The notes: generated by a model from the sequence alone, not told the origin. A stretch of 64,000 nucleotides of DNA from a virus (IMGVR_UViG_3300045919_000302:1-64000), one strand, 5' to 3'; counted from the stretch's first letter, positions 1,479 to 55,863 are shown. Made by a program: numbers and translations.

Positions 1479-1506
1479 TACGCGGGCCAGAAGCCTGGCG
1501 GGCGTA
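1479..1506. repeat. 28-bp spaced palindrome, copy 1
   Basis: TACG CGG GCC AGAAGCCT GGC GGG CGTA, intergenic. Confidence 0.85.
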
Positions 1507-1508
1507 GG

Positions 1509-1832
1509 TTACGATTTGTTTTCTGCCTGATCGAGGATCTTGTCGATCGTGGCTCTGGCTGGGATTCGGATCGTCTCTCCGGGGAGGAAGTCTGTCGGGA
1601 GATCCTTGTCGTTGGCAAGCAAGATCACCCAGAACAGCTCCGCATCCCCGTACTTGTCGTGGGCCACGAGGTCGATTCGCTTGGACTGACTGGAGTCGAG
1701 CGTAATGAACTCGTCATCCTGATGGTCGGGAATTTCCGGGTACTCGGTCTGATCCCAAAAGATCTTCCCCTGGAACTCCAGGAGGCGCGTCATGTTCAAC
1801 CAAGATCCCGCAGCGATGCGAACGTTACCCAT
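1509..1832 (-). CDS. Baseplate wedge gp53-like / tail X (LysM-like) protein
   Basis: RIDLVAHDKYGDAELFWVILLAND...GETIRIP motif. Confidence 0.75.
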   Translation of the reverse strand: MGNVRIAAGSWLNMTRLLEFQGKIFWDQTEYPEIPDHQDDEFITLDSSQSKRIDLVAHDKYGDAELFWVILLANDKDLPTDFLPGETIRIPARATIDKILDQAENKS

Positions 1833-1998
1833 CGGTCCTCTCCTTCTGGACGCGATCCTGGTGTTGCTCCATGTAGTCCCGCATGGCCTCTCGGACGACG
1901 TCGCTCATCGATCGGCCATCAATCGAAGAGAGCGTCTCCATGAAAGCGTACATGGGCTTTGAGATCCAGAGATTGATCCTGACCTTGTCTTGATCCAT
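1825..1998 (-). CDS. Ribbon-helix-helix (CopG/Arc-like) DNA-binding protein, 57 aa
   Basis: Manual translation MDQDKVRINLWISKPMYAFMETLSSIDGRSMSDVVREAMRDYMEQ...; beta-strand, helix, G-x-S-x-S, helix pattern. Confidence 0.7.
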   Translation of the reverse strand: MDQDKVRINLWISKPMYAFMETLSSIDGRSMSDVVREAMRDYMEQHQDRVQKERTDG

Positions 1999-2051
1999 GT
2001 TGCAGATGTTCTACGTAAGATAGACGTAGGTCAACACGTCAGTACGAAACG

Positions 2052-2711
2052 TCACTTGAGCTTGGCGAGGATGGCCTTAACCGCCTCGACTTGCTCCTTC
2101 AAGAGGCTGACGTCCGTTCCGTCCGCGATGTCGTACTTGTTGTCGTACTTTCGAATGTAGCCGTAAGCGTTCTGAAGGTCGCTTCCAATCAATCCGTGGA
2201 GGGCGTCCCCAAGATCTTGCAGCGTTTCACAGCGAGCCATTTCCTGGATCAGCTGGTCGGCATTGATGTAAGAGAGGTCGATAAAGCTGTGTGCGGCCGT
2301 TCCGGACTCTTTGATTTTCTTCCGGCGCTTACGCGGACCGATCGGAACGGGGTACCGGGCTACGTTTGCCGTCGAGGTGAACGAGGTGCCGGGGCCGGTG
2401 GACGCGCCCACGGCCGGCGGGGCGTCTTCAGCCAGATCTGGGTTCTCTTCCTTGGCCTTTGGCGACAGGAGCGTGACGATGTCTTTGTTGAGCGCCTTGT
2501 TATTCCAGAGCCTGGCGAGCTTCACGAGTTCGTCTGAATTCATGCCGAGAGAATTTTTCTTCAAGAACTGGTCAGAGAGCGCCGAAAAGAGTTCCTGGGT
2601 AGTGACCTCGGTCTTTGGGGCCTTCAACAGGGCCGAGATTCGTTTTAGATCCCAGTTCACGTACTTCATGTATTTGACGATGTGTTGGAGCTGGCTGAGG
2701 TTAAGGCGCAT
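2052..2711 (-). CDS. Hypothetical protein, possibly head-associated
   Basis: 219-aa ORF with LAE|D and IKE|S sites; promoter-like TCGAAA-17-TACGAT 6 nt before ATG. Confidence 0.55.
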   Translation of the reverse strand: MRLNLSQLQHIVKYMKYVNWDLKRISALLKAPKTEVTTQELFSALSDQFLKKNSLGMNSDELVKLARLWNNKALNKDIVTLLSPKAKEENPDLAEDAPPAVGASTGPGTSFTSTANVARYPVPIGPRKRRKKIKESGTAAHSFIDLSYINADQLIQEMARCETLQDLGDALHGLIGSDLQNAYGYIRKYDNKYDIADGTDVSLLKEQVEAVKAILAKLK

Positions 2712-2795
2712 GTCCAGATCGTATCTGAAGCCTGGGTCTTTTTCGACACATTTTCAATTGGGCCTTAATTGTTTACGATTGAATACGGAGGCCCT

Positions 2796-3119
2796 ATGAA
2801 AGTCATCTGGAAGCCCATCCTCGCAATCTGCATCCTCGACGCCGACGAGATCCCCCGGCCCACTCAGCCGGAGTCTTTCGATGGCGACGGCAGCCTCCTG
2901 GAGAAGATCCAGGCCATGCCTCAGGGCAGGCCGATCAACCTTCAGGCCGCATTCCTGCTGGCCCAGGATGAATTCTTCAACGCCATGGAGCGCGAAGACT
3001 TCGCCGCCGTCGATCAACTCATCGACGAACACTGGACCGAGAGTGTTTCGCGGCAGGGTTACAGGATCATCCTGAATGGATCTGAGTACGAAGTTTTCCA
3101 GAGCGAAGCGAGTCAGTAG
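2796..3119 (+). CDS. Hypothetical protein
   Basis: GGAGG SD before ATG 2796 (MKVIWKP). Confidence 0.55.
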   Translation: MKVIWKPILAICILDADEIPRPTQPESFDGDGSLLEKIQAMPQGRPINLQAAFLLAQDEFFNAMEREDFAAVDQLIDEHWTESVSRQGYRIILNGSEYEVFQSEASQ

Positions 3120-3145
3120 TTCCAGGCTGACGTACCCAACGCCGG

Positions 3146-3610
3146 TCAAGTTTTAATAAACTTGTACGCTTTATCTTGTTTAGACATTTTGAATGCCTGG
3201 GCAACTGCTTCCGGTGCGGCGCGGTAGATGTGCTTGCACAAGAATGGAATCTCTCGTGGGTTCGTGATCACGGGACGCTTGCCGTTGGAATACTCGATGC
3301 GGCTGGAGCCATGCTTTGCTAGGGCGTACTCCGCCACGAACAAAAAATTTGGACACGAGCACGAGACCCAGCAAGGGTTGTCCATCGAGATCCGCTCGAA
3401 GACGTTTTCGTGAATCTCTCCGGGGTACAGTTCAATCTCAATATCGTAATACTGGCTTTCCGTGACGGCCTTGCACCGAACAGTGAAGACAACCGTATCC
3501 AGATCCTTCCGCCTGGATCTGCTAACCTTCATGACCATCGCCGTGGTCTTTCTAGACCTGGCGACCACATCGGACGGAGTGTTTTGCATGAGTCTTCTAA
3601 GAGTCAGCAT
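3146..3610 (-). CDS. SWIM zinc-finger protein
   Basis: CSCPNF...CKHI motif. Confidence 0.7.
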   Translation of the reverse strand: MLTLRRLMQNTPSDVVARSRKTTAMVMKVSRSRRKDLDTVVFTVRCKAVTESQYYDIEIELYPGEIHENVFERISMDNPCWVSCSCPNFLFVAEYALAKHGSSRIEYSNGKRPVITNPREIPFLCKHIYRAAPEAVAQAFKMSKQDKAYKFIKT

Positions 3611-4733: not shown

Positions 4734-4743
4734 TTACAGCTCC

Positions 4744-8911: not shown

Positions 8912-9311
8912 CGCCGTAACCGAAAGCGACCTTCATGTAGTCGTTGAAAGCAAGGCCGTTGTCCATGGCCATCAACCCAAGAACCGCGAGCGACATGCGC
9001 TCAGGATCTCTCTTCTCCTTCGGAATCGGAACGAGGTCGCCGTAATCGATGAGCGCCTTGAACTTTTCGGAGCGGACCTTCTTGCCCTTGTCCCCGTGAC
9101 AGTAGTAGGTCCAGCCCTCGCGGGTGAATAGAAAGATAATGTAGTTCGTGCCACCCTTCACGGTCTTCGCCTCAAACACGTCCCCACGCTGGAAGACGCC
9201 AGCATTGGAATAGAGGATGGCGCTATTGCCGGTCTTCCGAGCGTTGTCCTCCATCTCCTTCATGGCCTTCTCGTACTGCTCCAGCATTTTCTGTTCTTGT
9301 TGGTTCAACAT
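8877..9311 (-). CDS. Hypothetical protein
   Basis: Probable start MLNQQ at 9311 with GGAG SD. Confidence 0.55.
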   Translation of the reverse strand: MLNQQEQKMLEQYEKAMKEMEDNARKTGNSAILYSNAGVFQRGDVFEAKTVKGGTNYIIFLFTREGWTYYCHGDKGKKVRSEKFKALIDYGDLVPIPKEKRDPERMSLAVLGLMAMDNGLAFNDYMKVAFGYGDGSQATELAKN

Positions 9312-9498
9312 CTTCAACTCCTTCAATCTTGATGAACTCACGCATGAGTTTTACCATCGTTTCACGAACATAAAGACCCCGCGACTGAACCGCGTGGATA
9401 AAACCACGGGCGACGCTCTCCTCTACCTTCACGGTGAAGGGGCGTCTGACCTCAGACGATTCCTCTGGAGCATCCCAGTCGATCCGATCCAGTTCCAT
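9223..9498 (-). CDS. Possible ribbon-helix-helix (ParG-like) protein
   Basis: RRPFTVKVEESVARGFIHAVQSRGLYVRETMVKLMREFI fits the RHH pattern. Confidence 0.5.
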   Translation of the reverse strand: MELDRIDWDAPEESSEVRRPFTVKVEESVARGFIHAVQSRGLYVRETMVKLMREFIKIEGVEDVEPTRTENAGAVREGHEGDGGQRSEDRQ

Positions 9499-9756: not shown

Positions 9757-9784
9757 TACGGATGCCACAACCCTGGCACCCGTA
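9757..9784. repeat. 28-bp spaced palindrome, copy 2
   Basis: TACG GAT GCC ACAACCCT GGC ACC CGTA. Confidence 0.85.
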
Positions 9785-14993: not shown

Positions 14994-15021
14994 TTCGGGT
15001 GCCGCGATCCTGGCGGCCGTA
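14994..15021. repeat. 28-bp spaced palindrome, copy 3 (one mismatch)
   Basis: TTCG GGT GCC GCGATCCT GGC GGC CGTA; 15000-15022 is identical to 55842-55864. Confidence 0.8.
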
Positions 15022-21458: not shown

Positions 21459-24305
21459 TCAGTTGTGGAAGACCATGACTCCGTCGTCGGAGTCCACGAA
21501 GGAAACGGATCCATTCATCTCCGCATCGCGAGCATAGGCTTCGTAGTCGATCGAGAAGAGATTGAGCTTCATGATCTCTTCGATGCCGTAGCCCAGCTCA
21601 TCCATGAAATAACCGACTGCGTCCTTTTGGAGCTGCTCCTGAATATCACTGGAGTACCGATCCCTGAGTTCTTCGCGAGCATCGTCAATGACCTTTTGAA
21701 CCGAGTCGGCCCCATCCGTCAGAGTGAGCATCCGATCCTTAATCTCTTGAACCCTGCTTTTGTCTTCAGGGTCCTCTTCGTCGAGACCGTCCAGCTCATC
21801 TTGAAGTTGAGCCAGCTCCTCTTCAGCGGCTTCTGCCGCCTCAAGTTCTTCCTCCTTGTCGGCATCGGAGATGACCTCGCTATCTTTCATGTCTCCCACG
21901 CGACGATCAGCTTCTTCCGAGGCGATCAAACGCATGTCGGTTTCGGACATCGTCAGATAGTTCGCCGCATTGTCTTTGCTCAGTCCGCCCGTCTCTTCGA
22001 GGAAGTCAGCAGCCCAGTCTTCCTTGGACTTGGCCTGACCCATGTAAGCGTCTTTCGCCTGGTCGATCGTGGCTTTGCTGTCGTTCATCAGATCGATGTA
22101 GGCTTCAAGTATCTTGCGATCTTCCTCGTCAAGATTGAGCCAGTCCCAGACCTTCTCGTCGATGCTGGACTCGCTGTAGTACCGTTCCGGGAATCCCTCG
22201 TAGCCCTGGAACATCGGTTCCGGATCTTCTTCATCCTTGTGAAGCTCTTTGCAAGCTTCGAGGAACTCATCCTTGTCGGCGTAGTCTTCAAGATTGAGCC
22301 ACGCGCCCTTGATGCTGCCGTCGTTGTATTTGGCGTAGGTGCCGACGTAAACAGCCGGGCCAGAAGGGGCCTTGGCTTCGGTCTTCACCGACTCCTTGAC
22401 CGGCTCTTCGGTGCCTTTGCCACAATTCGGGCAGACGCCCACGTGCGGATCCGCGACGGTCGTTTCATCGTCCTTGATGCGGATCGGCTCGCCACAGTGG
22501 GGGCAGTTGTAACCGTCGGATGACTCAACCTTCTCCTCGCCATTCTTCAGCAAGGTCTTGCCCATGACCAACTCGTTGAAGCTGCCCAGGCCCATCTTGA
22601 CCTTGGTGTCTCCACCGCTCAATACCACTTCTCCGCCATCCATGTGGACGTGAAGCTTCTGGCCCACCTTCCACTCGGGCTGATCCGGCACCGGAGCGAG
22701 AACCGAATACACGGCCACATCGCGGGCCTCAGGGAGGGTGTAGCCGTACTTCTTCCCGTTGAACTCGACGGAAAGGGACTCGCCCACATCTCTGCGAACG
22801 TCGCCCTCCTTGTTGTAAGTCTTCAGGCACATCGAGTCGTCGCAAACGTGATCATCGCCCGACTTGTGAGAGGTGCTCTTTCCGCAGACGACGCACTCCC
22901 CGGTGACAAGCTCATTCTCTGCCATTCCCTTTACGGCGATCTCTGCCTTCTCGGAATGAGAGTCGTTGTATTTCTTAACGGCATCGGCAAGAGATGCAGT
23001 CTTAGGCATCTCAAGAGCCTTCATGAATTCAGCACCACCCATGCGCTGAGTTACTTTCCCATCCTTGTCTTTAACAACAACGCAAACAGGATCCTTAGCT
23101 TCAACCACCGACTCTTTGCCTTCGTCCGCAAGTTTGTCGTTCAGCGCGTCCACGAGTTCATCGCGATCCACGACGAACATCCAGGTATCATAGGAGGCAT
23201 TGCCGTAGGCGTAGTTGGACTTGCCATCCCAGTAAGCTTCGTTGAGGTCCTTCGTAACTTTCGCCTTGTCCTCTTCGGAGAGGCCAGCGACAAGTGCCTT
23301 GAAGATATCTTCCACTTCCTCGCCGTTCACGATCCCGGAATTGCCGTCGAGCTGAGTCTCAACCTCTCCGATCTGACCAGATCCACCGACCGCGTTCATC
23401 GGATAGAACACCCCAGACGCCTCGGGTTTCGCCAGACTGCTCAGGATCGCAGTGATGTCGTCCTTCGAGAGCCCGGCCTTGAGAGCGTCCTCTACCGGAC
23501 CCCATAGCTCGTTGTTGGTCATGTTGATCGCGAGGAGCGCATCCGTCGTGATGGTTTGACCGAGAGCGTCCAGGTAGTCCTGGCCGGAGTCCTCGTGCTC
23601 GGTTTCATATTCAGTATTGGACTTCACATTCTCATCAATCCAGGCCGCCAGCGCTTTCATCTGACTTTCCTTATCAGAGAAGCTGATCTCGCCCTGGGAC
23701 TCCTTGATGGGCTTGCTGCGCTTCTTGACGGATTCGTCTTTCGATCCTTCGCCGCCCTTCACGTATACAGCGACATGATAATAGTGTTCAGAGTCGTTCA
23801 TCGAGTGACCCGCGTCTTCGATTTCCTTCTTCACGACTTCGCTGACCTGGAGACCGTCTTCTCCAATTGCCTGTAGGATTTCATTCGCAAGGTCTTCAGT
23901 GTTGCCGCCACAAGCGGAGTAGGTCACTTCTTCTTCGATGGCGTCTTCAGAGACTGAGTCGCGCTTGACGGCTCCGCCAACAATCGAAGAAGGCAAAAGA
24001 TCGGCTTCGCCGTCCACCTTGGCACTCAGAACCTCTTTGCCGGTGACAACCAGCGTAACGTCCAGAGAGGTGACAACCTGATGATCGTTGTCGGCCTTGT
24101 CGGCGTCAGCTTCCAGTTCAGTCGAGATCTCATAGCCCTGTTGGGCGAGCATCTCGATCGCGTCATCCACAGCTTCTTTCTGGGTCATGCCGATGCCCAC
24201 GGAAACGTCGTCCCACTTCGAGTGAGAGGTCCCGCGACCCTGGAAGTACTGGGAGTGTTCCATGCCGATGTCTTCGATTTCAAATTCAACGATCTTTTTG
24301 CTCAT
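21459..24305 (-). CDS. Multidomain acidic protein with C-terminal ArdA antirestriction domain
   Basis: VYVGTYAKYNDGSIKGAWLNL...EDPE.MFQ.YEGFP...IDYEAYARD; zinc ribbons; xxE|S/A linkers. Confidence 0.8.
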   Translation of the reverse strand: MSKKIVEFEIEDIGMEHSQYFQGRGTSHSKWDDVSVGIGMTQKEAVDDAIEMLAQQGYEISTELEADADKADNDHQVVTSLDVTLVVTGKEVLSAKVDGEADLLPSSIVGGAVKRDSVSEDAIEEEVTYSACGGNTEDLANEILQAIGEDGLQVSEVVKKEIEDAGHSMNDSEHYYHVAVYVKGGEGSKDESVKKRSKPIKESQGEISFSDKESQMKALAAWIDENVKSNTEYETEHEDSGQDYLDALGQTITTDALLAINMTNNELWGPVEDALKAGLSKDDITAILSSLAKPEASGVFYPMNAVGGSGQIGEVETQLDGNSGIVNGEEVEDIFKALVAGLSEEDKAKVTKDLNEAYWDGKSNYAYGNASYDTWMFVVDRDELVDALNDKLADEGKESVVEAKDPVCVVVKDKDGKVTQRMGGAEFMKALEMPKTASLADAVKKYNDSHSEKAEIAVKGMAENELVTGECVVCGKSTSHKSGDDHVCDDSMCLKTYNKEGDVRRDVGESLSVEFNGKKYGYTLPEARDVAVYSVLAPVPDQPEWKVGQKLHVHMDGGEVVLSGGDTKVKMGLGSFNELVMGKTLLKNGEEKVESSDGYNCPHCGEPIRIKDDETTVADPHVGVCPNCGKGTEEPVKESVKTEAKAPSGPAVYVGTYAKYNDGSIKGAWLNLEDYADKDEFLEACKELHKDEEDPEPMFQGYEGFPERYYSESSIDEKVWDWLNLDEEDRKILEAYIDLMNDSKATIDQAKDAYMGQAKSKEDWAADFLEETGGLSKDNAANYLTMSETDMRLIASEEADRRVGDMKDSEVISDADKEEELEAAEAAEEELAQLQDELDGLDEEDPEDKSRVQEIKDRMLTLTDGADSVQKVIDDAREELRDRYSSDIQEQLQKDAVGYFMDELGYGIEEIMKLNLFSIDYEAYARDAEMNGSVSFVDSDDGVMVFHN

Positions 24306-27544: not shown

Positions 27545-27575
27545 CGACCTTTTCCAAAGAATATACTAGGAAAGT

Positions 27576-27603
27576 TACGGGTGCCAGGCTTTAGGCGGGC
27601 GTA
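27576..27603. repeat. 28-bp spaced palindrome, copy 4
   Basis: TACG GGT GCC AGGCTTTA GGC GGG CGTA. Confidence 0.85.
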
Positions 27604-29397: not shown

Positions 29398-32300
29398 CTA
29401 GCCCATCAGGAACGGCGGTGTGAAGTTGCTTTTCCAATCATGCCCTTGATTGGCCTCTTGTTCCAGGGCCTTCTCGGCATTGGCCCGCCACTCTTGTTTC
29501 ATTTCTTCAGAATTACTTTCTATCACGATGGTCGCAGCATCGTCGAGAACCCAAGTGTCTTCATCGGAATTCTGAAACATCTCACGCGAACTGATCGGCA
29601 CATCCAGAATGCCAGAGGCCGCCTCCGTAAGAGTCGTCGTAATCGCGGCCAGAGCATCTGCGATATCTTTGCTGCCGCGTTGCGTTGCCGGCGGGTGGTC
29701 TACTTTTCCCGTCTTCCAGTCCTTCTGGAGTTCGCGAAGCTCCTTGATGAGCGGCGGATAATTGTAGATCTGGATCCGGTTCTCGTAGAGCGCAGTCTTC
29801 ATGACTTCGTAAGGGCCGCCGGCAGGCTCCACCGAAACCACTCGGGTCTGGTAGCCTTGGCCCTTCACGGTCTGGAGAAGATTCGCAGACTGGAATTGAT
29901 CGGCGCTGACCTGCTTGATGAAGAAGCCGTGCTGAGTCAGCTCGTAAATAATCCGGCGGATCTCGGAATACGAGATCTCACCCCCTCGCGGAGCGCGTAC
30001 CTGGAGTACGAAGTCCACATGGATGATCGGGGCCATCTCCTGCTCAGCCTTGCCGAACCTCTGAATGGGCGCGTATCCGGCGACACACCCGACGGCGATA
30101 CCCGTACAGTCCTGGGTTTTTGATAAGTCGAGGTGCAGGTGCCTGGGGGCTTTCGGATGCGCCAGGGGCTCCCAGGAGCCGTCTGGGTGAAGTTTAGCGA
30201 GCTTCTGCCAGTCGAAGCGTCCTGGGATGTCCTGATCCCAGGTCTCCTGGCTGAATGGATGGGTGCGGTTCTTGTCTATGGCCTCGTAGATCTTCTCGCG
30301 TCGGGCGATGAACGGGGTGATGGCCACTGTAGATCTGCCGGCGTGGTCCCGGATCGCGGCGTCAATATCTTCGACGAACGCACCGTGGAACTCGACCGGC
30401 ACCTCGACTACTTCCATGCCTTCCGGGTCCGCCTCACCGGCAGTCATGATCCGGGACATCTTGGTCTCATTCCCGATGGCCACACGGAATTTCTTCCCGG
30501 AGAAACGTTCCTTTGGGACAGCCTCCCAGACCGCCCGCTCCCTGACGAACACAAGGGGATCGCCAACGTACTTCCGGATGAGCTTCTCCGTGAACGCATT
30601 GGGCGTGGTCTTCGAAGAGGCCACCAAGATAACGCCAGGGAGTCTGCCTCGATTCATGAATCGAGACTCCATTCGGCGCTTGATGGCTTCGAAGATCACC
30701 TCGATGTTTTCCTTTACTTCGCTCCGGCCGACTTGCTGGTCACGCTTGTGAAAGAAATTGCCTTCGTCAACGGCTGCACCAATCGCATTCGTACCGACCA
30801 CTTGTCCTGCGGTCGAGGCTCCGGGCGGGAACGTGAACCGGTTTGGAAAGATGATGCCGGCAGCGGCTGTGTTTCTAATCGGGGCGAAGTGCTTCCGGAA
30901 GAACTCGGACTCATCAACGATCGCCCGGATCTTCGATACGAGATTGCGCTCGGCCACGTCTTCTGTGACAGAGACGCAAGGGACTGATATGTAGTCGGTG
31001 CTAGAGATCTGGTAGGTCTCGTGCGGATCTCGCATGCAGTAAACGTCATACGCCATGCGAACACATCCAATGACTGACCCGGTGGAGTTGTGAGTCACCA
31101 GGAAGTTATCCGTCAGGTACAGCCCATTTGGATTGCTGACGGTAATGCAGCGCATCGGCACAACCTCGCCGAGACGTACGTTGCGAACCGTGTTGTAAAG
31201 TTGCGTCGTCTCGCCAAGCGCGTTGACCTTCTTTCGAGCCAGCCTGAATAAATTCTTATTATTTCTGCTGCGGATATAGACAGTGAACGAATCAGAACAC
31301 TCGTAGGTCTTGCTGCCGTCGCCGCTAGTGCGGTCGCGCCCAGCCCTCTTACTAAGGGAAGCATAACAACCCAAAGATCTCGCCAGCCATTGAACATCTC
31401 TTGCAAGTCGCTCGTTCGTGCTAAAGAATTTCACGCTTCCGCATTCTTTGTCTGCGCTGCCGTCGCTATCTAGGAGGCCCTGGAGTATCGCTAGTCTGGC
31501 AACCTTTGGAGCAAACTTATAACACTCTGGAACGAACTTAGATCCAGCATCGGCATTGAAGAGCCCAATCGTGCGCAACTGGAGCCTTAGCTTGTGGACT
31601 GAATCACCCTTGAAGCTGATATCGAAACAGTCCTTGCCGTACTTAGAGAAGTCGGTCACATAGTTGCTGCCAACGCGGTCAGCGATCTCACGATAGAAAT
31701 GAATATCTGCACCGTTGACGGTGATCTTAACCCTTCGATCATTCATCGTTCCATTTCCAAGCATATAGCCGAGCAGGTATGGGTCGATTGTCCTGCCGCC
31801 GATGTCCGTTAGATCTACAGCTTCGGTGATGGGTATTTTGAACAGCTTTTTGCTGCCCAGTTTTTTTGAAAATTCCCTGAGCGTGTGATCATAGACTTGC
31901 CTGGATGTCTTAATGCAATTTGAATTATTCCATGAAAGACATGGGTCGCTCTTATCTCTGCGCCAACCCCCATACCAAAGATGATCGCCGCAAGAGGAGA
32001 CCTCTTCTCCATCGCCCAGCTCGAAGATGTACTCCTGCTCCTGCGTGATCGCGTGTAATTCGCGAATGATGGCAATCGTTCCATCGGGATTGCAGATCTG
32101 GTCTCCCACCTTGAGATCGACGATCTGCCTGAAACCTGTTGGGGTCAGTACGTGGTCTTTGACGCGCTGCTTCTTGCCCCCGCCAAGTGAACCTCCCCAG
32201 ATCGCGGTGTTGTACCCGCCCTCAAAGATCTCGATCAGGTCTTTCTTGATCTCCGGAAAGAGAGTCTTGGTGATCGATCCTAAATAGAAAGGGTTCTCCA

Positions 32301-32517
32301 AGAACTCCTTCATCGATACCGGAGGAACCCGGTAGAGATCGCGCGAGGCGTACTCGATGATCGGGCTTGCCCCGTCACGCATGAAATCCTCCAGGACAGA
32401 GAGCGCTGCTTCGCGCTCGGGTCCTGAAAGTCCTTCCATCTCTCGCTGAAAGATCTCAGCGTACTCGGCGTCAGTCCGAATGGACTGAAACCTTCCGCCT
32501 TGATTTAGGATGCTCAC
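29398..32517 (-). CDS. terL: Terminase large subunit with intein
   Basis: Walker A GGSLGGGK|ST split by the intein; Walker B AAVDE; nuclease HLDLS..D, DQFQS, KVDHP..SKDIADA. Confidence 0.93.
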   Translation of the reverse strand: MSILNQGGRFQSIRTDAEYAEIFQREMEGLSGPEREAALSVLEDFMRDGASPIIEYASRDLYRVPPVSMKEFLENPFYLGSITKTLFPEIKKDLIEIFEGGYNTAIWGGSLGGGKKQRVKDHVLTPTGFRQIVDLKVGDQICNPDGTIAIIRELHAITQEQEYIFELGDGEEVSSCGDHLWYGGWRRDKSDPCLSWNNSNCIKTSRQVYDHTLREFSKKLGSKKLFKIPITEAVDLTDIGGRTIDPYLLGYMLGNGTMNDRRVKITVNGADIHFYREIADRVGSNYVTDFSKYGKDCFDISFKGDSVHKLRLQLRTIGLFNADAGSKFVPECYKFAPKVARLAILQGLLDSDGSADKECGSVKFFSTNERLARDVQWLARSLGCYASLSKRAGRDRTSGDGSKTYECSDSFTVYIRSRNNKNLFRLARKKVNALGETTQLYNTVRNVRLGEVVPMRCITVSNPNGLYLTDNFLVTHNSTGSVIGCVRMAYDVYCMRDPHETYQISSTDYISVPCVSVTEDVAERNLVSKIRAIVDESEFFRKHFAPIRNTAAAGIIFPNRFTFPPGASTAGQVVGTNAIGAAVDEGNFFHKRDQQVGRSEVKENIEVIFEAIKRRMESRFMNRGRLPGVILVASSKTTPNAFTEKLIRKYVGDPLVFVRERAVWEAVPKERFSGKKFRVAIGNETKMSRIMTAGEADPEGMEVVEVPVEFHGAFVEDIDAAIRDHAGRSTVAITPFIARREKIYEAIDKNRTHPFSQETWDQDIPGRFDWQKLAKLHPDGSWEPLAHPKAPRHLHLDLSKTQDCTGIAVGCVAGYAPIQRFGKAEQEMAPIIHVDFVLQVRAPRGGEISYSEIRRIIYELTQHGFFIKQVSADQFQSANLLQTVKGQGYQTRVVSVEPAGGPYEVMKTALYENRIQIYNYPPLIKELRELQKDWKTGKVDHPPATQRGSKDIADALAAITTTLTEAASGILDVPISSREMFQNSDEDTWVLDDAATIVIESNSEEMKQEWRANAEKALEQEANQGHDWKSNFTPPFLMG
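31087..32172 (-). mobile_element. Class 3-type intein with LAGLIDADG endonuclease (362 aa)
   Basis: KQRVKDHVLTPTG...DHLW...YLLGYMLGNG...ILQGLLDSDG...MRCITV...VTHN|S. Confidence 0.9.
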
Positions 32518-34983: not shown

Positions 34984-36114
34984 TTATCCGATTGGGTACG
35001 CCGACCCTGATTTTGCTGCCATCTCTTGAAGCCGGGCCGTCGGTCGGCCCAGTCCGCTCAAGATCGTGAAGAGGTAGATTGTGCTTTGGGATCCAGCCTC
35101 ATAAACTCCGCGATGGAGCTTTGTCTCCGGGCCCTGGGCCATCAGTCGGTTAAGAGAGCCAAAAGCGCCCTCAAGAGCCTCCTGCGTAACCGAAGCAAGC
35201 CCCTCGCCGTTACTGACAAGAAGCCCTGCCCCCACTTTCGCTTTCGAGAGATCGAGTCCTTCAACGAGAAGCCCCTTCTTCACGTTCTCACGAACCGCGT
35301 CGGCGACATCCGTCGGCTTCTCGATTCGCTCAAGCTTTGTCCTTCCAAAGCTAAGAATGCCAGATTCGAGGACGGTCCGATAGTCTTTTGGATCGCAGAC
35401 CACGTGACACTCTTTGCTGTCGATCGCACACAATTCGTTGAAGCTGCTGAACAGGGCGGCGATGTTTTTATTTGCGGTCTTCCATACGTCCACCACGCTG
35501 GCGGTGCCGTAGAGCTGCATCACTCGGGCGTTGTCCACGATGACCAGGGGCGAGAGATGGCCCTTCTCGGCCATGCCCAGGAGGGGCAGAAGGGTCTCCA
35601 GGGCGTTCCGCTGCACAGCCGAGGATTCATCCTTGGTCGGGAGGGTGACGATCACGCCGACGCGCTTCTCGGGATTCTGGACGCCGATGGAAGCCATGTA
35701 CCCCTTGGCGATCTTCACGAGCGGAAGGGCCGCTCCGGATCCAGTGCCGCCGCCGGCACCGACACAGATCAAGATCTGCTCGACGTCTTTTTTGAAGGAG
35801 GACTGGATCAGACGATGAATCTCTTCGCTCTCGGCCTCGACCGCTGCACGGCCCACGGCCGGATCCTTGCCGGCCCCACCATCGCCCCTCAGGACATGAC
35901 GATTCGCCTCGGGTACGGAGAGCCGCTGCATGTCGCGGGTCGTGGTGTTCACGATGGCCACGCGCCGGTAGCCCAGACCGTAGAAGGTGTCCGCAAGATT
36001 ACCGCCGCCCTGGCCAGCGCCAAGGAAGGCCATCTTCACGGCAGTCTTCTTTTCTTCTGTGACGGATTCAACAGTGGCTAAAACTTCGTCATCAATCTGT
36101 GAAAGGTCAAGCAC
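34984..36114 (-). CDS. Tubulin/FtsZ-family GTPase (PhuZ/TubZ-like)
   Basis: GAGQGGGNLA, NT, GAGKDP..G, GAGGGTGSG, VDN, DPKD; GTG start at 36114 after AAGGAG. Confidence 0.9.
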   Translation of the reverse strand: MLDLSQIDDEVLATVESVTEEKKTAVKMAFLGAGQGGGNLADTFYGLGYRRVAIVNTTTRDMQRLSVPEANRHVLRGDGGAGKDPAVGRAAVEAESEEIHRLIQSSFKKDVEQILICVGAGGGTGSGAALPLVKIAKGYMASIGVQNPEKRVGVIVTLPTKDESSAVQRNALETLLPLLGMAEKGHLSPLVIVDNARVMQLYGTASVVDVWKTANKNIAALFSSFNELCAIDSKECHVVCDPKDYRTVLESGILSFGRTKLERIEKPTDVADAVRENVKKGLLVEGLDLSKAKVGAGLLVSNGEGLASVTQEALEGAFGSLNRLMAQGPETKLHRGVYEAGSQSTIYLFTILSGLGRPTARLQEMAAKSGSAYPIG

Positions 36115-36263
36115 AACGATCTCCTTTTTCCCTAACAAATTAAACTCATCTTCAGTCAGCAGAGTGTAAACCATAATTGCGGAAGCCACCATCCTGGCAT
36201 TCGCAAGCAACCCAAGCAACAACCCTTTGACTCTTTGTCATGACAAAAGGTATAAGTCAGGCT

Positions 36264-37100
36264 ATGCCAAAAGCATTGGATTTCACCGCAAAGCGATTCG
36301 GTCGCCTTACTGCCATACATTTCGTGGGCCGCAGTCCTTCTGGCCGAGTGTGGCTCCTCTTATGCGACTGCGGCGCAACGATAGAAAGGCCGGTATGGGC
36401 TTTCAAGAAACCAAGAGTCAAAAACGTTTCCTGTGGATGCAGGGGACTTCCATTCCCCACTAACGGTCAAAGATTTGGGAGGTTGATATCGACAGGCCCA
36501 GGATCGAATGGGAAATGGTCTTTTCGCTGCGATTGCGGAAAGGAAATCCAAAGGCCGCGCTATGCGGTTCAAAACGGCAAAACTAAAAGTTGCGGATGCT
36601 TGTGGACCGAGACAGCAAAGGAAAAACAAAAGAAATACTGCCATTCGCACGGCTACAGCAAGACCGCCATCTACAGCAGATGGAAAAACATGCTGTCCCG
36701 CTGTGAGGATCCAAACCACATCAATTTTAACGACTACGGCGGAAGAGGCATAAAAGTTTGCGAACGGTGGCATAACTTCGAGAATTTTCTGGCAGATATG
36801 GGAAACCCGTTCACCGACAACAAGAGTAAGGCTCTTCAAATCGATCGCATAAACAACAACGGAAACTACGAACCTGGAAATTGTCGATGGGTAACACCCA
36901 GAGAAAACTGCAACAATAGAAGAAACAACGTACTGATCACATGGAACAACAGAACCCTTACTCTTGTTCAGTGGTCCAGGGAGACCGGCATTCCCAGAGA
37001 CACACTAAGTCACAGAATAAAGAGCAGCCGTCTCAGCATCGAGGAGATTCTCACTGTTCCCGTAGGGGCGCACCCTTGGAGGAGGTCCCGTCACCCATAA
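36264..37100 (+). CDS. HNH homing endonuclease
   Basis: Two FGRL..W.x.CDCG..SCGC units; YGGRGIKVCERW; IDRINNNGNYEPGNCRW; opposite strand, AT-richer. Confidence 0.9.
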   Translation: MPKALDFTAKRFGRLTAIHFVGRSPSGRVWLLLCDCGATIERPVWAFKKPRVKNVSCGCRGLPFPTNGQRFGRLISTGPGSNGKWSFRCDCGKEIQRPRYAVQNGKTKSCGCLWTETAKEKQKKYCHSHGYSKTAIYSRWKNMLSRCEDPNHINFNDYGGRGIKVCERWHNFENFLADMGNPFTDNKSKALQIDRINNNGNYEPGNCRWVTPRENCNNRRNNVLITWNNRTLTLVQWSRETGIPRDTLSHRIKSSRLSIEEILTVPVGAHPWRRSRHP

Positions 37101-37116: not shown

Positions 37117-37144
37117 TACGGGGGCCATAATCCTGGCGGGCGTA
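37117..37144. repeat. 28-bp spaced palindrome, copy 5
   Basis: TACG GGG GCC ATAATCCT GGC GGG CGTA. Confidence 0.85.
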
Positions 37145-46913: not shown

Positions 46914-47204
46914 TCACACCCTCCTCAATCCCATTTGCTGGAGATCTTGATCGCTCAAAATTGCCACGTCCACTCCCTTACCAAGAAAAACCGAACCAGA
47001 AGCGCCCAACTCCTTCAGTCTCTGGCCGTACATATAGAGCTGCTCAACGGACAGACTTCCCGGATCGACGTAGATGAAGAGGGTCTTTCCCCTGAGATCC
47101 ACGCCATGGAACAGGGGATAGAGCTTGTCGGCCACTCCGCTGTGATCCGCGTCTGCGAGCTGCACGGCCGAGATGAATGCCCTGTCAAAGTCTGCCCGGT
47201 TCAT
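46914..47204 (-). CDS. Hypothetical protein
   Basis: ATGA-coupled to the kinase gene. Confidence 0.55.
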   Translation of the reverse strand: MNRADFDRAFISAVQLADADHSGVADKLYPLFHGVDLRGKTLFIYVDPGSLSVEQLYMYGQRLKELGASGSVFLGKGVDVAILSDQDLQQMGLRRV

Positions 47205-48070
47205 CCGGCACCCCTCACGACGTCTTGAGCATTCCTTACGGCTGCCGTGAGACTGGCACCCGTAGACAACGCCCAGGTGAGCGCGGCGCTAATGATGTCC
47301 CTGGCTCCGAGAGGACTGCCACCTTGAGTTGGGGACTCATAGATGACGGGTTCTCCGTCAACCCCATGTAACGTGAGTGTGCTGTCGCCGCACTCCAGAA
47401 TGTAACAGACACCATGCCTGGCTCTAAAACTCTCAACATCGTGGGCCCCGGTTCTGATACGCATGTCTTCCAGGTCCTCAGAGTTCAAACGTAAGATCCC
47501 CGCACCCCGGTAGAGGAGGGGATTCCTCCTGGAGCAGCCATCAACGACAACGGGGACGTTCTGATCCAGTCCGTACTGAATCAATGTCTGAGCCACGCGC
47601 TCACAGATGAGCCCCTTGTCGTAGTCAGAGACCAGGATCGCGTGAGGCTTCCATGACAGCTCGCGCATGAGCCCCTCAGTAAAGCTGATCGAGACCTGCG
47701 GCTCGTAGGGGGTCGTGTCTTCTTCGTCCACCCGGAACGCCAGCTTGCCGCGAACATAGTACCGGTTCTTGACCGTAGTTCTTTTGGATTGAGTCCCCAC
47801 CCAGCGATCCCCAACGCCGGCCGAATCGAGGGTGCTTCGAAGATCTATCCCGTCTTGGTCGTCCCCGATAATCGAGCAGAGCCTCGCCTCGGCCATAGAA
47901 AGCTTTCTGGCAGCGTTGGCGGCCATGCCTGGGCGGGTTTGCGTGGCCTGTGGAATGAATACTGGGACCGGGGCCTCTCCACAAAGACGTCGAGCTTCTC
48001 CATTGAAGTCACGATCCAGACATACATCTCCGACGACGAGAATTCTCTTAGGACTAGGTTGCCTAGCCAT
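47201..48070 (-). CDS. PfkB-family kinase resembling the HldE/RfaE heptose-7-phosphate kinase domain
   Basis: ILVVGDVCLD...RLCGEAPVPV...GMAANAA...RTTVKNR...SDYDKG; C-terminal GARD in place of GAGD. Confidence 0.8.
   Translation of the reverse strand: MARQPSPKRILVVGDVCLDRDFNGEARRLCGEAPVPVFIPQATQTRPGMAANAARKLSMAEARLCSIIGDDQDGIDLRSTLDSAGVGDRWVGTQSKRTTVKNRYYVRGKLAFRVDEEDTTPYEPQVSISFTEGLMRELSWKPHAILVSDYDKGLICERVAQTLIQYGLDQNVPVVVDGCSRRNPLLYRGAGILRLNSEDLEDMRIRTGAHDVESFRARHGVCYILECGDSTLTLHGVDGEPVIYESPTQGGSPLGARDIISAALTWALSTGASLTAAVRNAQDVVRGAG
47237..47264. repeat. 28-bp spaced palindrome, copy 6 (inside the kinase 3' end)
   Basis: TACG GCT GCC GTGAGACT GGC ACC CGTA. Confidence 0.8.
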
Positions 48071-48371
48071 TGAGCACCTTCTTGTCTTTCTTCAGTGCAA
48101 CCACAGCTTCGCGAAGCTCAATCAGGATTTTGTTCTGCACCTGGATGTAGCTCTCGACCACTTGAGTGTGAAGATGGTTGTGATCCCGAACCTTCTCGAA
48201 CTCTTTGCGGGTATTCTCGGCAAGCCTTGCCTGCTCCGCGATCCAGCGATCGATCTGCATCTGGATCTCCTGGACCTCTTTATTGAGGGAATCTTCCGCG
48301 ACCACCAGTCGCGCCCGAACTTCGGCCTCGACCATCTTCTTGATCATCTTTTCAATTCTGTTTTTAAACAT
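48063..48371 (-). CDS. Coiled-coil hypothetical protein
   Basis: Heptad-rich, 102 aa. Confidence 0.55.
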   Translation of the reverse strand: MFKNRIEKMIKKMVEAEVRARLVVAEDSLNKEVQEIQMQIDRWIAEQARLAENTRKEFEKVRDHNHLHTQVVESYIQVQNKILIELREAVVALKKDKKVLNG

Positions 48372-48590
48372 TGCCTTCCTCCACGTACCAGTAACTGGTG
48401 ATTTCTCTTTCTTCGGTCTCCATCAGCTCGTCATCGGTAAGCTGGAAGTCCTTCGCCGATCTGACCACCAGAGCCCCGTAGCGGATCCGGTCCACCTCGA
48501 ACAGGTGGCCTTTCAGCATCACCACGAGGCGGTGGCCGCTGGGCCTCTTCGCGAGAAGACCCTGGATGTAACTGATTGAAACCTCTTTGC

Positions 48591-48782
48591 TCATTTCTTA
48601 AGCCTGCGAATCTCAACTTCCTTTGGGGCCGAGATCCTGAGTCTTGCCGCACGCCCGATGCCGGGTCCGCCCACCTGAACAACAAGAACGACAGCGTCGC
48701 CCACTCGGAAGGACATCCCCTCCTTCAAGGTGATAACTACGTTTCCAATTTTTTCTTTAGACTCTTCTTGTTTCTCCATCAC
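48591..48782 (-). CDS. CsrA-like RNA-binding protein
   Basis: VVITLKEGMSFRVGD.VVLVVQV...RLRISAPKEVEIRR. Confidence 0.7.
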   Translation of the reverse strand: MMEKQEESKEKIGNVVITLKEGMSFRVGDAVVLVVQVGGPGIGRAARLRISAPKEVEIRRLKK

Positions 48783-53283: not shown

Positions 53284-53386
53284 GAATCCCCCAGAAAGAT
53301 TGCGCGACGACGCAAAGGTTCAAAGCCTGTTTCTTTGACAGTAAGGGGAGGTGTCGAGCGCCGCAATGAAATTGACATTTTGTAAT

Positions 53387-53463
53387 TGGAGGGGAGGAAG
53401 GGAGTTGAACCCTCCTGAAGGGGATTTAGAATCACCCCGCCTAAACCGCTCGGCCACCTCCCC
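53387..53463 (-). tRNA. tRNA with CUA anticodon (amber suppressor), U73 discriminator
   Basis: GGGGAGG TG GCCG AGCGGTTT AGGC GGGGTGA TT-CTA-AA TCCCC TTCAG GAGGG TTCAACT CCCTT CCTCCCC T CCA. Confidence 0.85.
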
Positions 53464-53470
53464 GCCAAAC

Positions 53471-53770
53471 TTACATCAGGGGAAGATCAGACAAAATCTG
53501 ATCGACCTTTTTGTTCGCAAGGACCGCAAAGGCTGTCAAGGATCCTCCGAGATCCGGTTCGCAAAACCGGGCCGATATCTCCCAGAGGACTTTCTTACTG
53601 TATTCCTCAAGGACTTGGATATTCGGGACCTTCAATAAAACGATCGTCTCGTTATACCAAAGCCGGTGCCAGTCCTCGTCCTTCGCCCACTCCGCTACCG
53701 CATGACATGCCTGCGCTGCCATTGACGACCTCTTCAAGTCCGACCTGACCACCACGTAAAGCTTGCTCAT
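53471..53770 (-). CDS. Peptidyl-tRNA hydrolase, Pth2-like
   Basis: KLYVVVRSDL...AAQACHA...IVLLKV...F.EPD....TA. Confidence 0.8.
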   Translation of the reverse strand: MSKLYVVVRSDLKRSSMAAQACHAVAEWAKDEDWHRLWYNETIVLLKVPNIQVLEEYSKKVLWEISARFCEPDLGGSLTAFAVLANKKVDQILSDLPLM

Positions 53771-54050
53771 GTTTTTCCTTCAAGAGATCAATCGTTGCCT
53801 GGACCGCGCTCGCGTCGTGTTCGTTGCCGGGTCGAGGTCTCTCGATCTGATCAATCGTCCGGCCGCGCAACGTGCTTCGGGCGATGTGCTTGTGACGGAA
53901 CTCCCAGCAGTCCCTGGAGAGCTTCGCAACGAGCTTCCATGTGTCTCCGCCCTTACCGCGCTGGGCGTCTTTGAATTGTTTTCTGGTTTCTCGGATCTCG
54001 TGTGCCAGACGTTTGAGATCCTGCTTGAGTTCGTAGATGACTGATTTCAT
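53652..54050 (-). CDS. Basic helical hypothetical protein
   Basis: AGGAG SD; EFRHKHIARSTLRGRTIDQIE. Confidence 0.65.
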   Translation of the reverse strand: MKSVIYELKQDLKRLAHEIRETRKQFKDAQRGKGGDTWKLVAKLSRDCWEFRHKHIARSTLRGRTIDQIERPRPGNEHDASAVQATIDLLKEKHEQALRGGQVGLEEVVNGSAGMSCGSGVGEGRGLAPALV

Positions 54051-54058
54051 TAATTGCT

Positions 54059-54154
54059 CCTAAGCGATTCGCAGTTTGCGAATTGAAATGTGTTTCATGT
54101 TTACGCCGTTCACTTTTCAGTGAACGTTTACCGGATCTGAAACACACGCTTAGG
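54059..54154 (-). ncRNA. Candidate structured 5' leader containing a 12-codon amber-terminated uORF
   Basis: Four perfect stems: CCTAAGCG/CGCTTAGG, TGTGTTTCA/TGAAACACA, CGTTCACT-GAAA-AGTGAACG, ATTCGCA/TGCGAAT. Confidence 0.7.
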
Positions 54155-54182
54155 GCGGCTTAAAAACCTACATAACTTTACC

Positions 54183-54494
54183 CTACCCGTTCGTATCAGC
54201 GGGGCCAACCGGAATCGAAGTCGTGTCAACCGCATTGGCCAACTGACTATCCAGGTCGAACATTGCCAGGAAGGCGATGGCACGACCATTGGCGGCCTCA
54301 GCCGGAGCCACGCCGGTCAGCGCTCCCCGTCCGCCCTGGTTGTCGTCGAGGCTACAGAGGGCGTGCGTAAGCGCCATCAGTATTTTCGATTCCAGGAATG
54401 CGAGCCACTGGTCGTCATCTTTGAAGTGACCCCTGGCTTCATACAGGATCCCGATTGCCGACTTCCCTTTAAAATTCAAACTCGCATTGGTCAT
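54183..54494 (-). CDS. Hypothetical protein, paralog of 54537..54767
   Basis: FKGKSAIGILYEARGHFKDDDQWLAFLE. Confidence 0.6.
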   Translation of the reverse strand: MTNASLNFKGKSAIGILYEARGHFKDDDQWLAFLESKILMALTHALCSLDDNQGGRGALTGVAPAEAANGRAIAFLAMFDLDSQLANAVDTTSIPVGPADTNG

Positions 54495-54536
54495 GGTAAT
54501 CCCCTTACCTCAAAGATGACGACAGATCAGGCCATG

Positions 54537-54767
54537 TCAATCTGGAAGCGGGGCGAGCGAGTCCGGATCCATACTGAGCAGCTCGAATCCAGCCAGAAAA
54601 GCGAAGGAGGTATGATTTTCGCGATCAAACCAAGCCGTAGTCAGGGCAACCACCATCATTTCCTCCAGAAAAAGCAACCACTGATCACCATTAAGCCTGG
54701 CCTTGGCTTCTTTAAATATCTGAACCGGGGTTTTGCCTTCAAAGCTTACTACATGATTAGTTTCCAT
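54537..54767 (-). CDS. Hypothetical protein, paralog of 54183..54494
   Basis: FEGKTPVQIFKEAKARLNGDQWLLFLE; AAGGAG SD. Confidence 0.6.
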   Translation of the reverse strand: METNHVVSFEGKTPVQIFKEAKARLNGDQWLLFLEEMMVVALTTAWFDRENHTSFAFLAGFELLSMDPDSLAPLPD

Positions 54768-54784
54768 ATTATCTCCTTTTACTG

Positions 54785-55105
54785 TCAACCAAAGCGATAC
54801 AGCTTTCTTTTCCGCCAAAGAGTGGAGAGATTAATCCCCAAAATTTCGGCAGCCTCTTCCATGGTTCCTGTTTGATTCAAGATGCTCTTGATGTGGTCGC
54901 GCTCGATCTCAGCTAGGGTTCGCAAGTCGCCCTTAGACAGAATGGACGATCCGGCCTCAGCCTGATTGACGATAGTCATGGCCACACGCTCACATGCGTA
55001 TGCAACTATAAGATCATCAGTGTTACTCAGCTTCTTGGTGCGCCTGGACCAATCCACCAGCCAACGAGCGTCATTAACCAATAGTTCTTCCGCAAAGTCT
55101 TTCAT
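54785..55105 (-). CDS. Fis-type (HTH_8) DNA-binding protein
   Basis: TLAEIERDHIKSIL...EAAEILGINLSTLWRK. Confidence 0.85.
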   Translation of the reverse strand: MKDFAEELLVNDARWLVDWSRRTKKLSNTDDLIVAYACERVAMTIVNQAEAGSSILSKGDLRTLAEIERDHIKSILNQTGTMEEAAEILGINLSTLWRKRKLYRFG

Positions 55106-55425
55106 TCCGGCACTGCATCAATCCGACGGTCAGTCCGAAGCACCTTTCGCTCGATGGCCTCGTCTACGGCCTTCGCTCCGTAATAGAGGCGCATCTGCCG
55201 GAGCATGATCGTGGCGTCTGCAATCTCCTCGACCGTGACGTCGAAGCTCCCGCTGTTCTTAGGATTGTAATTCTCAACGGCATCCTTGGCGAGTCGGGCT
55301 GTGCATTCGCTCAACTCCTCGATAGCTTTGATCCGCTGAGTTATCGCACCGAAGTGCTGCATGAACTTGCCTGCGTAGGCATCCAGAGCAAACGTGCTCG
55401 ACGCCATTCCGCATGAAGTTTCCAT
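55102..55425 (-). CDS. MazG-like NTP pyrophosphohydrolase
   Basis: IEELSE...EEIAD..IM..Q. Confidence 0.7.
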   Translation of the reverse strand: METSCGMASSTFALDAYAGKFMQHFGAITQRIKAIEELSECTARLAKDAVENYNPKNSGSFDVTVEEIADATIMLRQMRLYYGAKAVDEAIERKVLRTDRRIDAVPE

Positions 55426-55584
55426 TACCGCCTCCTTCTGAAGAAGAACTCAATCTCAGAACAGATCCAGAGACCAATGATAACCAGGGCAATTAAAAAC
55501 ACCAGTTCTGCGAAGAACGTCAGCTTATCCAGGTTGCTCACTTCCATCTGGCTCTTCGTCAGCCATCCAAACCATTGCATGACG

Positions 55585-55818
55585 TCACCCCTGGTTCATA
55601 GATTCGTCGAGGAAGCGCGGCTTGTCCTGGCGGTGAGTCGGGACGTGTACGCGCATCTGTTCAAGGAATATTTTTACAATCTGGTCCTTGGCCATGAATG
55701 GGCTCGGGATCTCCTCTCCGTCCTCATCGTACTTCGGGTTCGACTTCGGGCTGAAGTAGAGGGCCTTTAGCTCTTCGTACCGCTTCACGAACGCATCATA
55801 GTCAACTTGCTGGGCCAT
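55585..55818 (-). CDS. Hypothetical protein
   Basis: AAGGAG SD; follows palindrome copy 7. Confidence 0.6.
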   Translation of the reverse strand: MAQQVDYDAFVKRYEELKALYFSPKSNPKYDEDGEEIPSPFMAKDQIVKIFLEQMRVHVPTHRQDKPRFLDESMNQG

Positions 55819-55835
55819 GGGGTCTCCTTACGTTG

Positions 55836-55863
55836 TACGGCTGCCGCGATCCTGGCGGCCGTA
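55836..55863. repeat. 28-bp spaced palindrome, copy 7
   Basis: TACG GCT GCC GCGATCCT GGC GGC CGTA. Confidence 0.85.

Follow-up and report, generated by a model that had tools for sequence, protein, structure and literature searches.

The first 64,000 nucleotides of the viral genome IMGVR_UViG_3300045919_000302 (positions 1-64000, hereafter the window) carry dispersed copies of a 28-bp spaced palindrome, TACG-N3-GCC-N8-GGC-N3-CGTA. The window is the beginning of a single contig of 149,291 bp that represents the whole genome, called G000 below. Our analysis shows that these sites are genuine and restricted to the phage lineage. They lie at gene ends, at regular intervals along the genome, and in one relative their position is kept but their sequence has turned over. 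We propose, with about even confidence, that a protein with two-fold symmetry docks on the 28-bp element as duplex DNA.

Searching the window for the pattern with at most one mismatch returned exactly seven copies, at positions 1479, 9757, 14994, 27576, 37117, 47237 and 55836, compared with none expected, since 100 dinucleotide-preserving shuffles yielded zero matches. An earlier interpretation of the window made from its sequence alone (the sequence-only reading) had listed these same seven copies with invariant spacers, and the search found just these. The sole window copy with a mismatch is 14994, which has CGAA instead of CGTA on the coding strand. Six further copies lie beyond the window, at 72875, 79584, 91853, 102679, 115909 and 125092, bringing the total in G000 to 13. 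When the distance between TACG and CGTA was varied, 13 occurrences were found at a spacing of 20 nucleotides (nt), against a mean of about 1.6 at other spacings. A weight-matrix scan of the whole genome, as the sequence-only reading had recommended, separated the 13 copies (24.6-42.4 bits) clearly from the background, the next best score being the 12 bits of a decayed or variant copy at 36178. The blocks TACG, GCC, GGC and CGTA occupy positions 1-4, 8-10, 19-21 and 25-28, and the consensus oriented by its centre is TACG-SSY-GCC-AGG-nT-nn-GGC-nSC-CGTA. Reading the copies confirmed the CAGGA reported in three of those in the window. No other recurrent palindrome was found in G000. The window copies, the variant copy and their immediate surroundings are as follows.

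1479..1506, minus strand: copy 1, between the gp53-like baseplate gene (1509..1832) and the T4_baseplate gene (745..1461); stop TAA 2 nt upstream, ATG 17 nt downstream.
9757..9784, minus strand: copy 2; stop TAA 2 nt upstream, AGGAG abutting CGTA; pairing possible at all 11 stem positions.
14994..15021, minus strand: copy 3; stop TAG 2 nt upstream, ATG 4 nt downstream.
27576..27603, plus strand: copy 4, whose AGG core points against the direction of the genes; begins 3 nt past the portal stop and is followed by the promoter-like TAGTATATT and then by a gene for a 1075-aa protein.
37117..37144, minus strand: copy 5, at a convergent junction; 9 nt past an intrinsic-terminator-like hairpin of the minus-strand genes and 16 nt past the stop of the plus-strand open reading frame (ORF) 36240..37100.
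47237..47264, minus strand: copy 6, within the coding sequence of a PfkB-family kinase (47201..48070), near its 3' end, about 20 codons ahead of the stop; the Pfam PfkB match extends to residue 282 of 289.
55836..55863, minus strand: copy 7; stop TAA 2 nt upstream, ATG 17 nt downstream; leads a run of small genes that ends with a Fis-type helix-turn-helix (HTH) gene.
36178..36205, minus strand: decayed or variant copy, TGCG-AAT-GCC-AGGATGGT-GGC-TTC-CGCA, with two mismatches (12 bits); the tubulin-like gene lies 63 nt downstream.

Placement relative to genes is strict. Eleven of the 13 copies are intergenic; the stop codon of the upstream ORF precedes the motif by 1-4 nt in ten copies, and by exactly 2 nt in seven. 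The downstream start codon follows 4-40 nt past the motif, and AGGAG often abuts CGTA. Copy 115909 is embedded in the final codons of a 74-aa ORF, and copies 37117 and 72875 are found between convergent genes. No shared function unites the genes on either side of the copies, which include baseplate, portal, kinase and SNF2 helicase genes and unknowns. The minus strand holds nearly all G000 genes, and the GCC-AGG-nT core lies on the coding strand in ten of the 13 copies, being reversed at 27576, 102679 and 115909. The gene context described earlier, namely small gaps adjoining a Shine-Dalgarno sequence and one copy within the kinase gene, is therefore correct, and the placement is even tighter than had been described.

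The copies are also spaced evenly along the chromosome, a regularity that the sequence-only reading had proposed to check. Neighbouring copies are 5.2 to 17.0 kb apart, on average 10.3 kb, and the coefficient of variation (CV) of the gaps is 0.31. Under uniform placement, the probability of a CV this low is 1e-5 and that of a minimum gap this large is 9e-4; when positions were instead picked at random among the 201 gene junctions, these values were 5e-5 and 4e-4, respectively. The last 24 kb of G000, with the large tail genes, hold no copy.

G000 is a distant T4-like myovirus, in which a T4-type portal, a gp23-like capsid gene context, a prohead protease, a tail sheath and baseplate proteins were assigned using PHROGs and Pfam, together with a LAGLIDADG intein-bearing terminase and a tubulin-like gene. 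Its portal is only 33% identical to those of the nearest named phages, and the nearest protein among 5.8 billion shares 64% identity. To follow the motif in this family, we compared G000 with a 111-kb Logan contig (ERR14797998_6995, hereafter rel1; 80.6 kb read), whose portal is 62% identical, with four closer relatives (L264, L265, L088 and G001, the latter represented by 53.6 kb), and with two more basal relatives, G004 (L168-L174, 134.6 kb) and G005 (L175-L183, 160 kb).

Outside this family the motif does not form a repeat family. Exact scans with the oriented pattern returned 2 matches in IMG/VR, 72 in metagenome contigs and 61 among 185,579 bacterial and archaeal species represented by one genome each, all of them single and at chance level, and none of the 72 metagenome matches came from DNA encoding relatives of the G000 phage. 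The 28-bp word is thus private to the phage lineage, and the scans of bacterial genomes and metagenomes show that it is no repetitive extragenic palindromic (REP) family of the host.

Within the family, rel1 carries five copies of a related palindrome, TACGAGT-N14-ACTCGTA, one of them with one mismatch, separated by gaps of 10.7, 28.4, 10.35 and 27.8 kb. The 28-bp length and the TACG/CGTA ends are identical to those of the G000 word. One rel1 copy directly follows the portal stop, at the same junction as G000 copy 27576, and another lies between the gp53-like and T4_baseplate genes, at the junction of copy 1479, with similar downstream flanks. We estimate the chance of two such coincidences at about 0.006, from some 45 shared junctions of which 4 are occupied in G000. 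Two of the five rel1 copies are located at convergent gene ends. Keeping length, ends and position while changing the inner sequence is what would be expected if the sites co-evolve with their reader. In contrast to rel1, the post-portal junctions of L264, L265, L088 and G001 have no motif, and none was found in the 53.6 kb of G001, so that conservation in related phages holds for rel1, at two identical junctions, but not for the four closer relatives at the junctions compared. In the portal tree, G000 groups with L264/L265 and L088/G001 (support 100/99) and rel1 branches outside; the simplest reading is therefore that the motif was lost in the L264/L265 and L088/G001 lineages, which indicates that its role is dispensable. 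Matches to the rel1 word in IMG/VR, 68 single ones, were close to the chance number; eight of them have extended stems, which are explicable as ordinary hairpins sharing the 7-bp base, and we draw nothing from them.

No TACG motif was found in the basal relatives G004 and G005. These genomes carry a different palindrome, TCCAAT-[CT][AG]-ATTGGA, of 14 bp (TCCAAT-N2-ATTGGA), in 16-25 copies each with mild over-dispersion, and a start codon usually follows the palindrome at a distance of 6-20 nt. The 3' arm plus G resembles a GGAG ribosome-binding site, and the 5' arm corresponds to its complement. One G004 copy, at 61039, occupies the junction that holds copy 125092 in G000, and the 14-bp word or its TCCAA-N4-TTGGA variant lies about 45 nt past the portal stop in L091 (3584-3600) and L095. 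Most other first-pass positional matches to the G005 TCCAAT sites turned out to be inside genes once the junctions were read, and only G004 61039, L091 and L095 stand.

A palindrome may be read either as duplex DNA or as a hairpin in the transcript. Among the G000 copies, the symmetric blocks that would form the helices are invariant, and the N3 spacers and central 8 nt, the would-be loops, are variable, a pattern consistent with readout of duplex DNA through its grooves. Nine of the 13 copies lack a pair at columns 6/23, and nine at 7/22, in line with the earlier statement that the N3 bases mostly do not pair. There is no compensatory change in GCC/GGC anywhere within G000, the two half-sites show the letter combinations at column 5/24 that their frequencies by themselves predict, and among coding-strand mismatches G.U (5) is not commoner than A.C (7). 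The even spacing, the translated copy in the kinase gene and the copy behind a strong terminator are a better fit to a role at the DNA level. The earlier view, in which a DNA site for a dimeric protein was favoured over an RNA hairpin, thus holds, and is strengthened by the invariant blocks, the even spacing and the kinase-gene copy.

The most serious competitor, which we nevertheless consider rather unlikely, is a transcribed hairpin, acting as a processing, stabilising, pausing or termination, or translational-coupling element whose UACG/CGUA base is read by a phage or host factor. Such an element would account for the ten copies positioned 1-4 nt after a stop codon, most copies ending just before the next ribosome-binding site, as well as for the ten co-oriented with transcription, and copies between convergent genes would form part of the 3' region of each of the two transcripts. 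Moreover, G001 has an ordinary terminator-like hairpin at the junction equivalent to that of copy 9757. On the other hand, invariant stems with variable loop and internal-loop bases are the opposite of usual RNA-protein recognition, and the lack of compensatory changes, the mostly unpaired columns 6/7 with 22/23 and the A.C mismatches as common as G.U point the same way. Even spacing has no obvious reason at the RNA level, copy 37117 sits behind a strong terminator, and copy 47237 is translated. Canonical terminators are present elsewhere in G000, and we discarded a link between the motif and intrinsic terminators: only 37117 adjoins one, and a T-run follows none of the 13 copies. An RNase III processing stem needs about 20 bp, or two helical turns. 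The motif failed as a processing hairpin of the T7/SP82 type, its stems having at most 11-12 pairs and most copies being interrupted by a 2x2 or 3x3 internal loop. No Rfam family matched the window at gathering score.

Several observations weigh against the proposed docking site. Eight of the 13 copies fold clearly better than shuffled sequences (z -2.8 to -5.9; dG -13.8 to -18.2 kcal/mol); across all copies the folding energy ranges from -6.7 to -18.2 kcal/mol, and three (27576, 37117 and 72875) are no better than shuffles, which counts against the hairpin. The rel1 stems are continuous, with 7-11 pairs, and all four of their non-Watson-Crick pairs are sense-strand G.U. An asymmetric centre (AGG-nT) that runs along transcription in ten of the 13 copies is not what a purely symmetric dimer site predicts, and the tight post-stop placement beside ribosome-binding sites, 2 nt in seven copies, also suits an inter-cistron RNA element. 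In addition, a 28-bp site of four blocks is unusual for ParB-type or HTH-dimer sites, and the four closer relatives lack the motif at the junctions compared. We infer the docking protein from the sites themselves. Over the 18 copies of G000 and rel1, 80.8% of the cells are paired, with covariation mainly between the two phages, a figure that cannot separate a DNA palindrome from a hairpin. The fold energies, the continuous G.U-tolerating stems of rel1 and the stop-codon placement keep the RNA element alive as a rival.

The sequence-only reading had also offered an operator or promoter regulon. Each copy would then govern initiation of the next gene through a phage activator or repressor, sigma factor or RNA polymerase. 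This is improbable. Most copies do lie ahead of a gene start, positions are kept with changed sequence between relatives, as with phage-specific promoters, and both motif-bearing phages encode a Fis/NtrC-type HTH protein. However, several copies are only 4-17 nt from the start codon, with the ribosome-binding site filling the gap and no room for a -10 element plus leader, and no -10-like, AT-rich or sigma-54-like element accompanies the motif. Three copies are reversed, no gene lies downstream of the copies between convergent genes (37117, 72875 and two in rel1), and the genes that flank the copies belong to unrelated classes. Sigma-70-like promoters of the TTTACA/TTTACG kind can be recognised at other places, apart from the motif. 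Judged by eye, the spacings are also unlike those of a sigma-54 or extracytoplasmic function (ECF) promoter, and the T4-like late promoter TATAAATA is not enriched.

Recombination or selfish spread is still less probable. The copies would be either REP-like or miniature inverted-repeat transposable element (MITE)-like repeats moved by a transposase, or core sites of a recombinase with 10-bp arms and an 8-bp asymmetric spacer. The 10-8-10 layout with its asymmetric centre does resemble recombinase core sites, copies start and finish with TA, and two pairs are near-identical (14994/55836 at 26 of 28 positions; 115909/125092 at 27 of 28, inverted); a possibly homing-endonuclease-like plus-strand ORF is flanked by 36178 and 37117. 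Yet G000 has no tyrosine or serine recombinase and no Y1 transposase or REP-associated tyrosine transposase (RAYT), with no match to PF00589, PF00239 or PF01797. Most copies differ from one another in the central 8 bp, a difference that would prevent recombination between them, and the orthologous positions in rel1, at 62% portal identity, argue against recent spread. A selfish element does not predict even spacing, and the word is not a repeat family in any bacterial genome scanned. Compared with known classes, the array therefore lacks the multi-copy host family and the RAYT of REP or bacterial interspersed mosaic elements (BIMEs), as well as the recombinase and shared core of lox, FRT or dif sites.

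If the element is a docking site, its reader would be a lineage-specific protein acting on DNA as either a dimer or a dimer of dimers, and would contact the invariant blocks TACG, GCC, GGC and CGTA. The inner blocks are 11 bp apart and thus on one face of the helix; the outer blocks are 24 bp apart. Thirteen such sites would be set along the chromosome about 10 kb apart, and because the genome is tightly packed, they would be squeezed between a stop codon and the next ribosome-binding site at the nearest gene end. We favour a role as marks of transcription-unit boundaries, where the bound protein may act as a roadblock or insulator at gene ends, including convergent ones, in a stoperator-like manner. 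Alternatively, the sites may serve as loading or anchoring points that split the replicating chromosome into units of about 10 kb, as for ParB or KorB. Between these roles we lean towards boundary marking. Either role would reveal the way in which a large lytic phage, its genes almost all on one strand, partitions its transcription or its replicating chromosome.

Dispersed dyad repeats have precedents. Cluster O mycobacteriophages carry 17-bp dyad repeats, TGTTCGG-N3-CCGAACA, with more than 30 per 70-kb genome, for which the authors propose a dimeric DNA-binding protein whose role lies outside transcription initiation (Cresawn et al. 2015, PMC4351075). Both these phages and G000 have many near-identical dyad repeats throughout the genome, mostly in short gaps and some in coding sequence, with some central asymmetry relative to transcription and no tie to promoters; the Cluster O repeats differ in their contiguous 7-bp arms and their higher density at one genome end (PMC4351075). 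The G000 array is likewise genome-wide, mostly intergenic and not promoter-linked. It differs in its 28-bp length, four short blocks, 13 copies, intervals of about 10 kb and mostly post-stop placement, and in its T4-like myovirus host genome. To this class of repeats, which is known from a few phage groups, the G000 array adds an unusually long spaced palindrome, statistically strong even spacing, strict gene-end placement and an evolutionary series within a T4-like family.

Stoperators are 13-bp asymmetric sites bound by the monomeric immunity repressor of temperate phages of the L5 type. The G000 element, described here from sequence, is instead a 28-bp palindrome in a genome where no integrase was found and no repressor identified. 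Cluster A stoperators are also dispersed in short intergenic gaps, mostly in one orientation relative to transcription, and act by halting elongating RNA polymerase rather than through promoters (PMC9283540). The placement of the G000 copies, 11 of 13 intergenic and 10 of 13 co-oriented with the genes, is comparable. OB and parS sites are compact palindromes of 13-16 bp, whereas the G000 site has 28 bp with spaced blocks. The resemblance to the OB operators of plasmid RK2 lies in palindromes scattered over the replicon, which are read by a ParB-family protein, KorB, that acts at a distance (McLean et al. 2025, PMC11790492). G000 likewise has a gene for a full-length ParB-like protein, in which a GNRR box and an HTH segment are present, but the gene is not next to a site and its homologues occur elsewhere without the motif. 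The start-associated sequences (SAS/ESAS) of Cluster K mycobacteriophages, reportedly described by Pope et al. in 2011, are 13-bp non-palindromic words at start codons. They share with the G000 element a short conserved sequence beside the ribosome-binding site at a subset of gene starts; the G000 element differs in being tied to stop codons and in occurring also where no gene start follows.

The different words found in this family raise a broader and more tentative possibility, which we regard as less likely than the docking site itself: that the T4-like family keeps a chromosome-wide lattice of protein-docking palindromes at the ends of genes, in which the 14-bp TCCAAT-N2-ATTGGA of basal lineages was swapped for the 28-bp TACG...CGTA of G000, some positions being kept and whole lineages having lost the lattice. 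If so, there would be a co-evolving, dispensable reader, for instance a ParB/KorB-like clamp or a Fis-like bender, and units of about 10 kb serving transcriptional insulation or DNA organisation in the course of infection. To our knowledge, no such lattice role has been described for a lytic T4-like phage. This evolutionary series, in which one word is replaced by another at some shared junctions and closer relatives have lost the motif, would open a route to the reader by phylogenetic profiling, given more complete genomes.

Among the proteins that might read the sites, a Fis-type HTH protein and a ParB-like protein remain candidates. The first had been named as a candidate binder by the sequence-only reading:

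54785..55105, minus strand: 106-aa protein with a C-terminal Fis/NtrC-type HTH_8 domain (Pfam HTH_8, E=1e-10).

This protein is real, and among the four genomes compared, members of its family occur in the motif-bearing G000 and rel1 but in neither G004 nor G005; the two proteins, however, cannot be aligned with each other. Two ParB_N-domain proteins are encoded outside the window, at 75310-76188 (L188:11310-12188) and 87755-88513 (L189:3755-4513) of G000. The former is the full-length ParB-like protein and aligns to Spo0J/Noc through the HTH region; the latter has no HTH segment and has orthologues in G004 and G005. No homologue of the 75310-76188 protein was found in the relatives compared, no ParB domain appears in the precomputed Pfam lists of rel1, which cover 72% of the contig, and IMG/VR holds no close relative of this protein or of the HTH_8 protein. 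Phage contigs L260 and L261, which bear homologues of the 75310-76188 protein, have no motif, and this protein stays a candidate reader only. A parS-like reading of the sites is at most tentative: the genome does encode a ParB-like protein, but nothing links that protein to the sites, to none of which its gene is adjacent.

The other binders put forward earlier fared less well. The two ribbon-helix-helix (RHH) proteins, at 1825..1998 and 9223..9498, have no Pfam RHH match, and the former has homologues in motif-less relatives. CsrA-type binding, which would place GGA in every target, in the loop of a short hairpin or overlapping the ribosome-binding site, gains no support, as GGA occurs on the transcribed strand in the central 8 nt of only five of the 13 copies and CsrA-like genes, present in all four large genomes, are also found in the motif-less G004 and G005. 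A RegA-type translational operator was considered as well: PF01818 has no match in G000, G001, G004 and G005, a weak negative because the control genomes were also silent. Four proteins are common only to G000 and rel1 (46914..47204, 48364..48594, 56179..56658 and 56711..56917); Pfam and the protein atlas gave no DNA-binding call for 46914..47204, 48364..48594 and 56711..56917.

Other sequence elements were noted along the genome. Sigma-70-like promoters (TTTACA/TTTACG, about 17 nt, then a TAnnnT-type -10) recur in the non-structural half and are distinct from the 28-bp motif; intergenic examples lie at 56659-56710, 84097-84187, 107942-107993 and 118668-118747. At the post-portal junction, a conserved promoter-like element (TAGTATATT / GGTACATATT / GGTATAGTT / TTTAGACT) is found in G000 (27545-27575), rel1, G001, G002, L088, L264 and L265, 25-40 nt ahead of the start of the gene that follows the portal gene, and may be the late promoter of this phage family. 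A 110-bp intergenic region at 124597-124706 (L191:597-706) is dense in TTACGAGAC / TTTCGTAA half-sites in both orientations and may be an operator region; the additional TACG-N20-CGTA matches at 124661 and 124697 fall inside it and are not copies of the motif.

The opposite-strand ORF 36240-37100 (+), flanked by the motif copies 36178 and 37117, belongs to a repeated ORF family with an N-terminal FGRL...W-C-CDCG motif, together with 98727-99353 and 110476-110964. These ORFs are located where the gene caller left stretches empty, and are possibly free-standing homing endonucleases; 36240-37100 has no Pfam match. The adjacent tubulin/FtsZ-family (TubZ/PhuZ-like) gene at 34984-36222 (-) is kept in all relatives examined, with 54-76% identity. 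The large terminase (29398-32517, -) contains a LAGLIDADG-type insert (Pfam LAGLIDADG_3/Hom_end at residues 342-420), and the SNF2 helicase at 91885-94287 of G000 contains an intein with Hint and homing-endonuclease domains. A 948-aa protein (21459-24305, -), encoded between the protease and portal genes, carries an ArdA antirestriction domain at residues 652-785. Finally, the ends of G000 (1-127 and 149165-149291) form an exact 127-bp terminal repeat, which looks less like a direct terminal repeat of biological origin than like a k-mer overlap left by the assembler on a circular or permuted genome.

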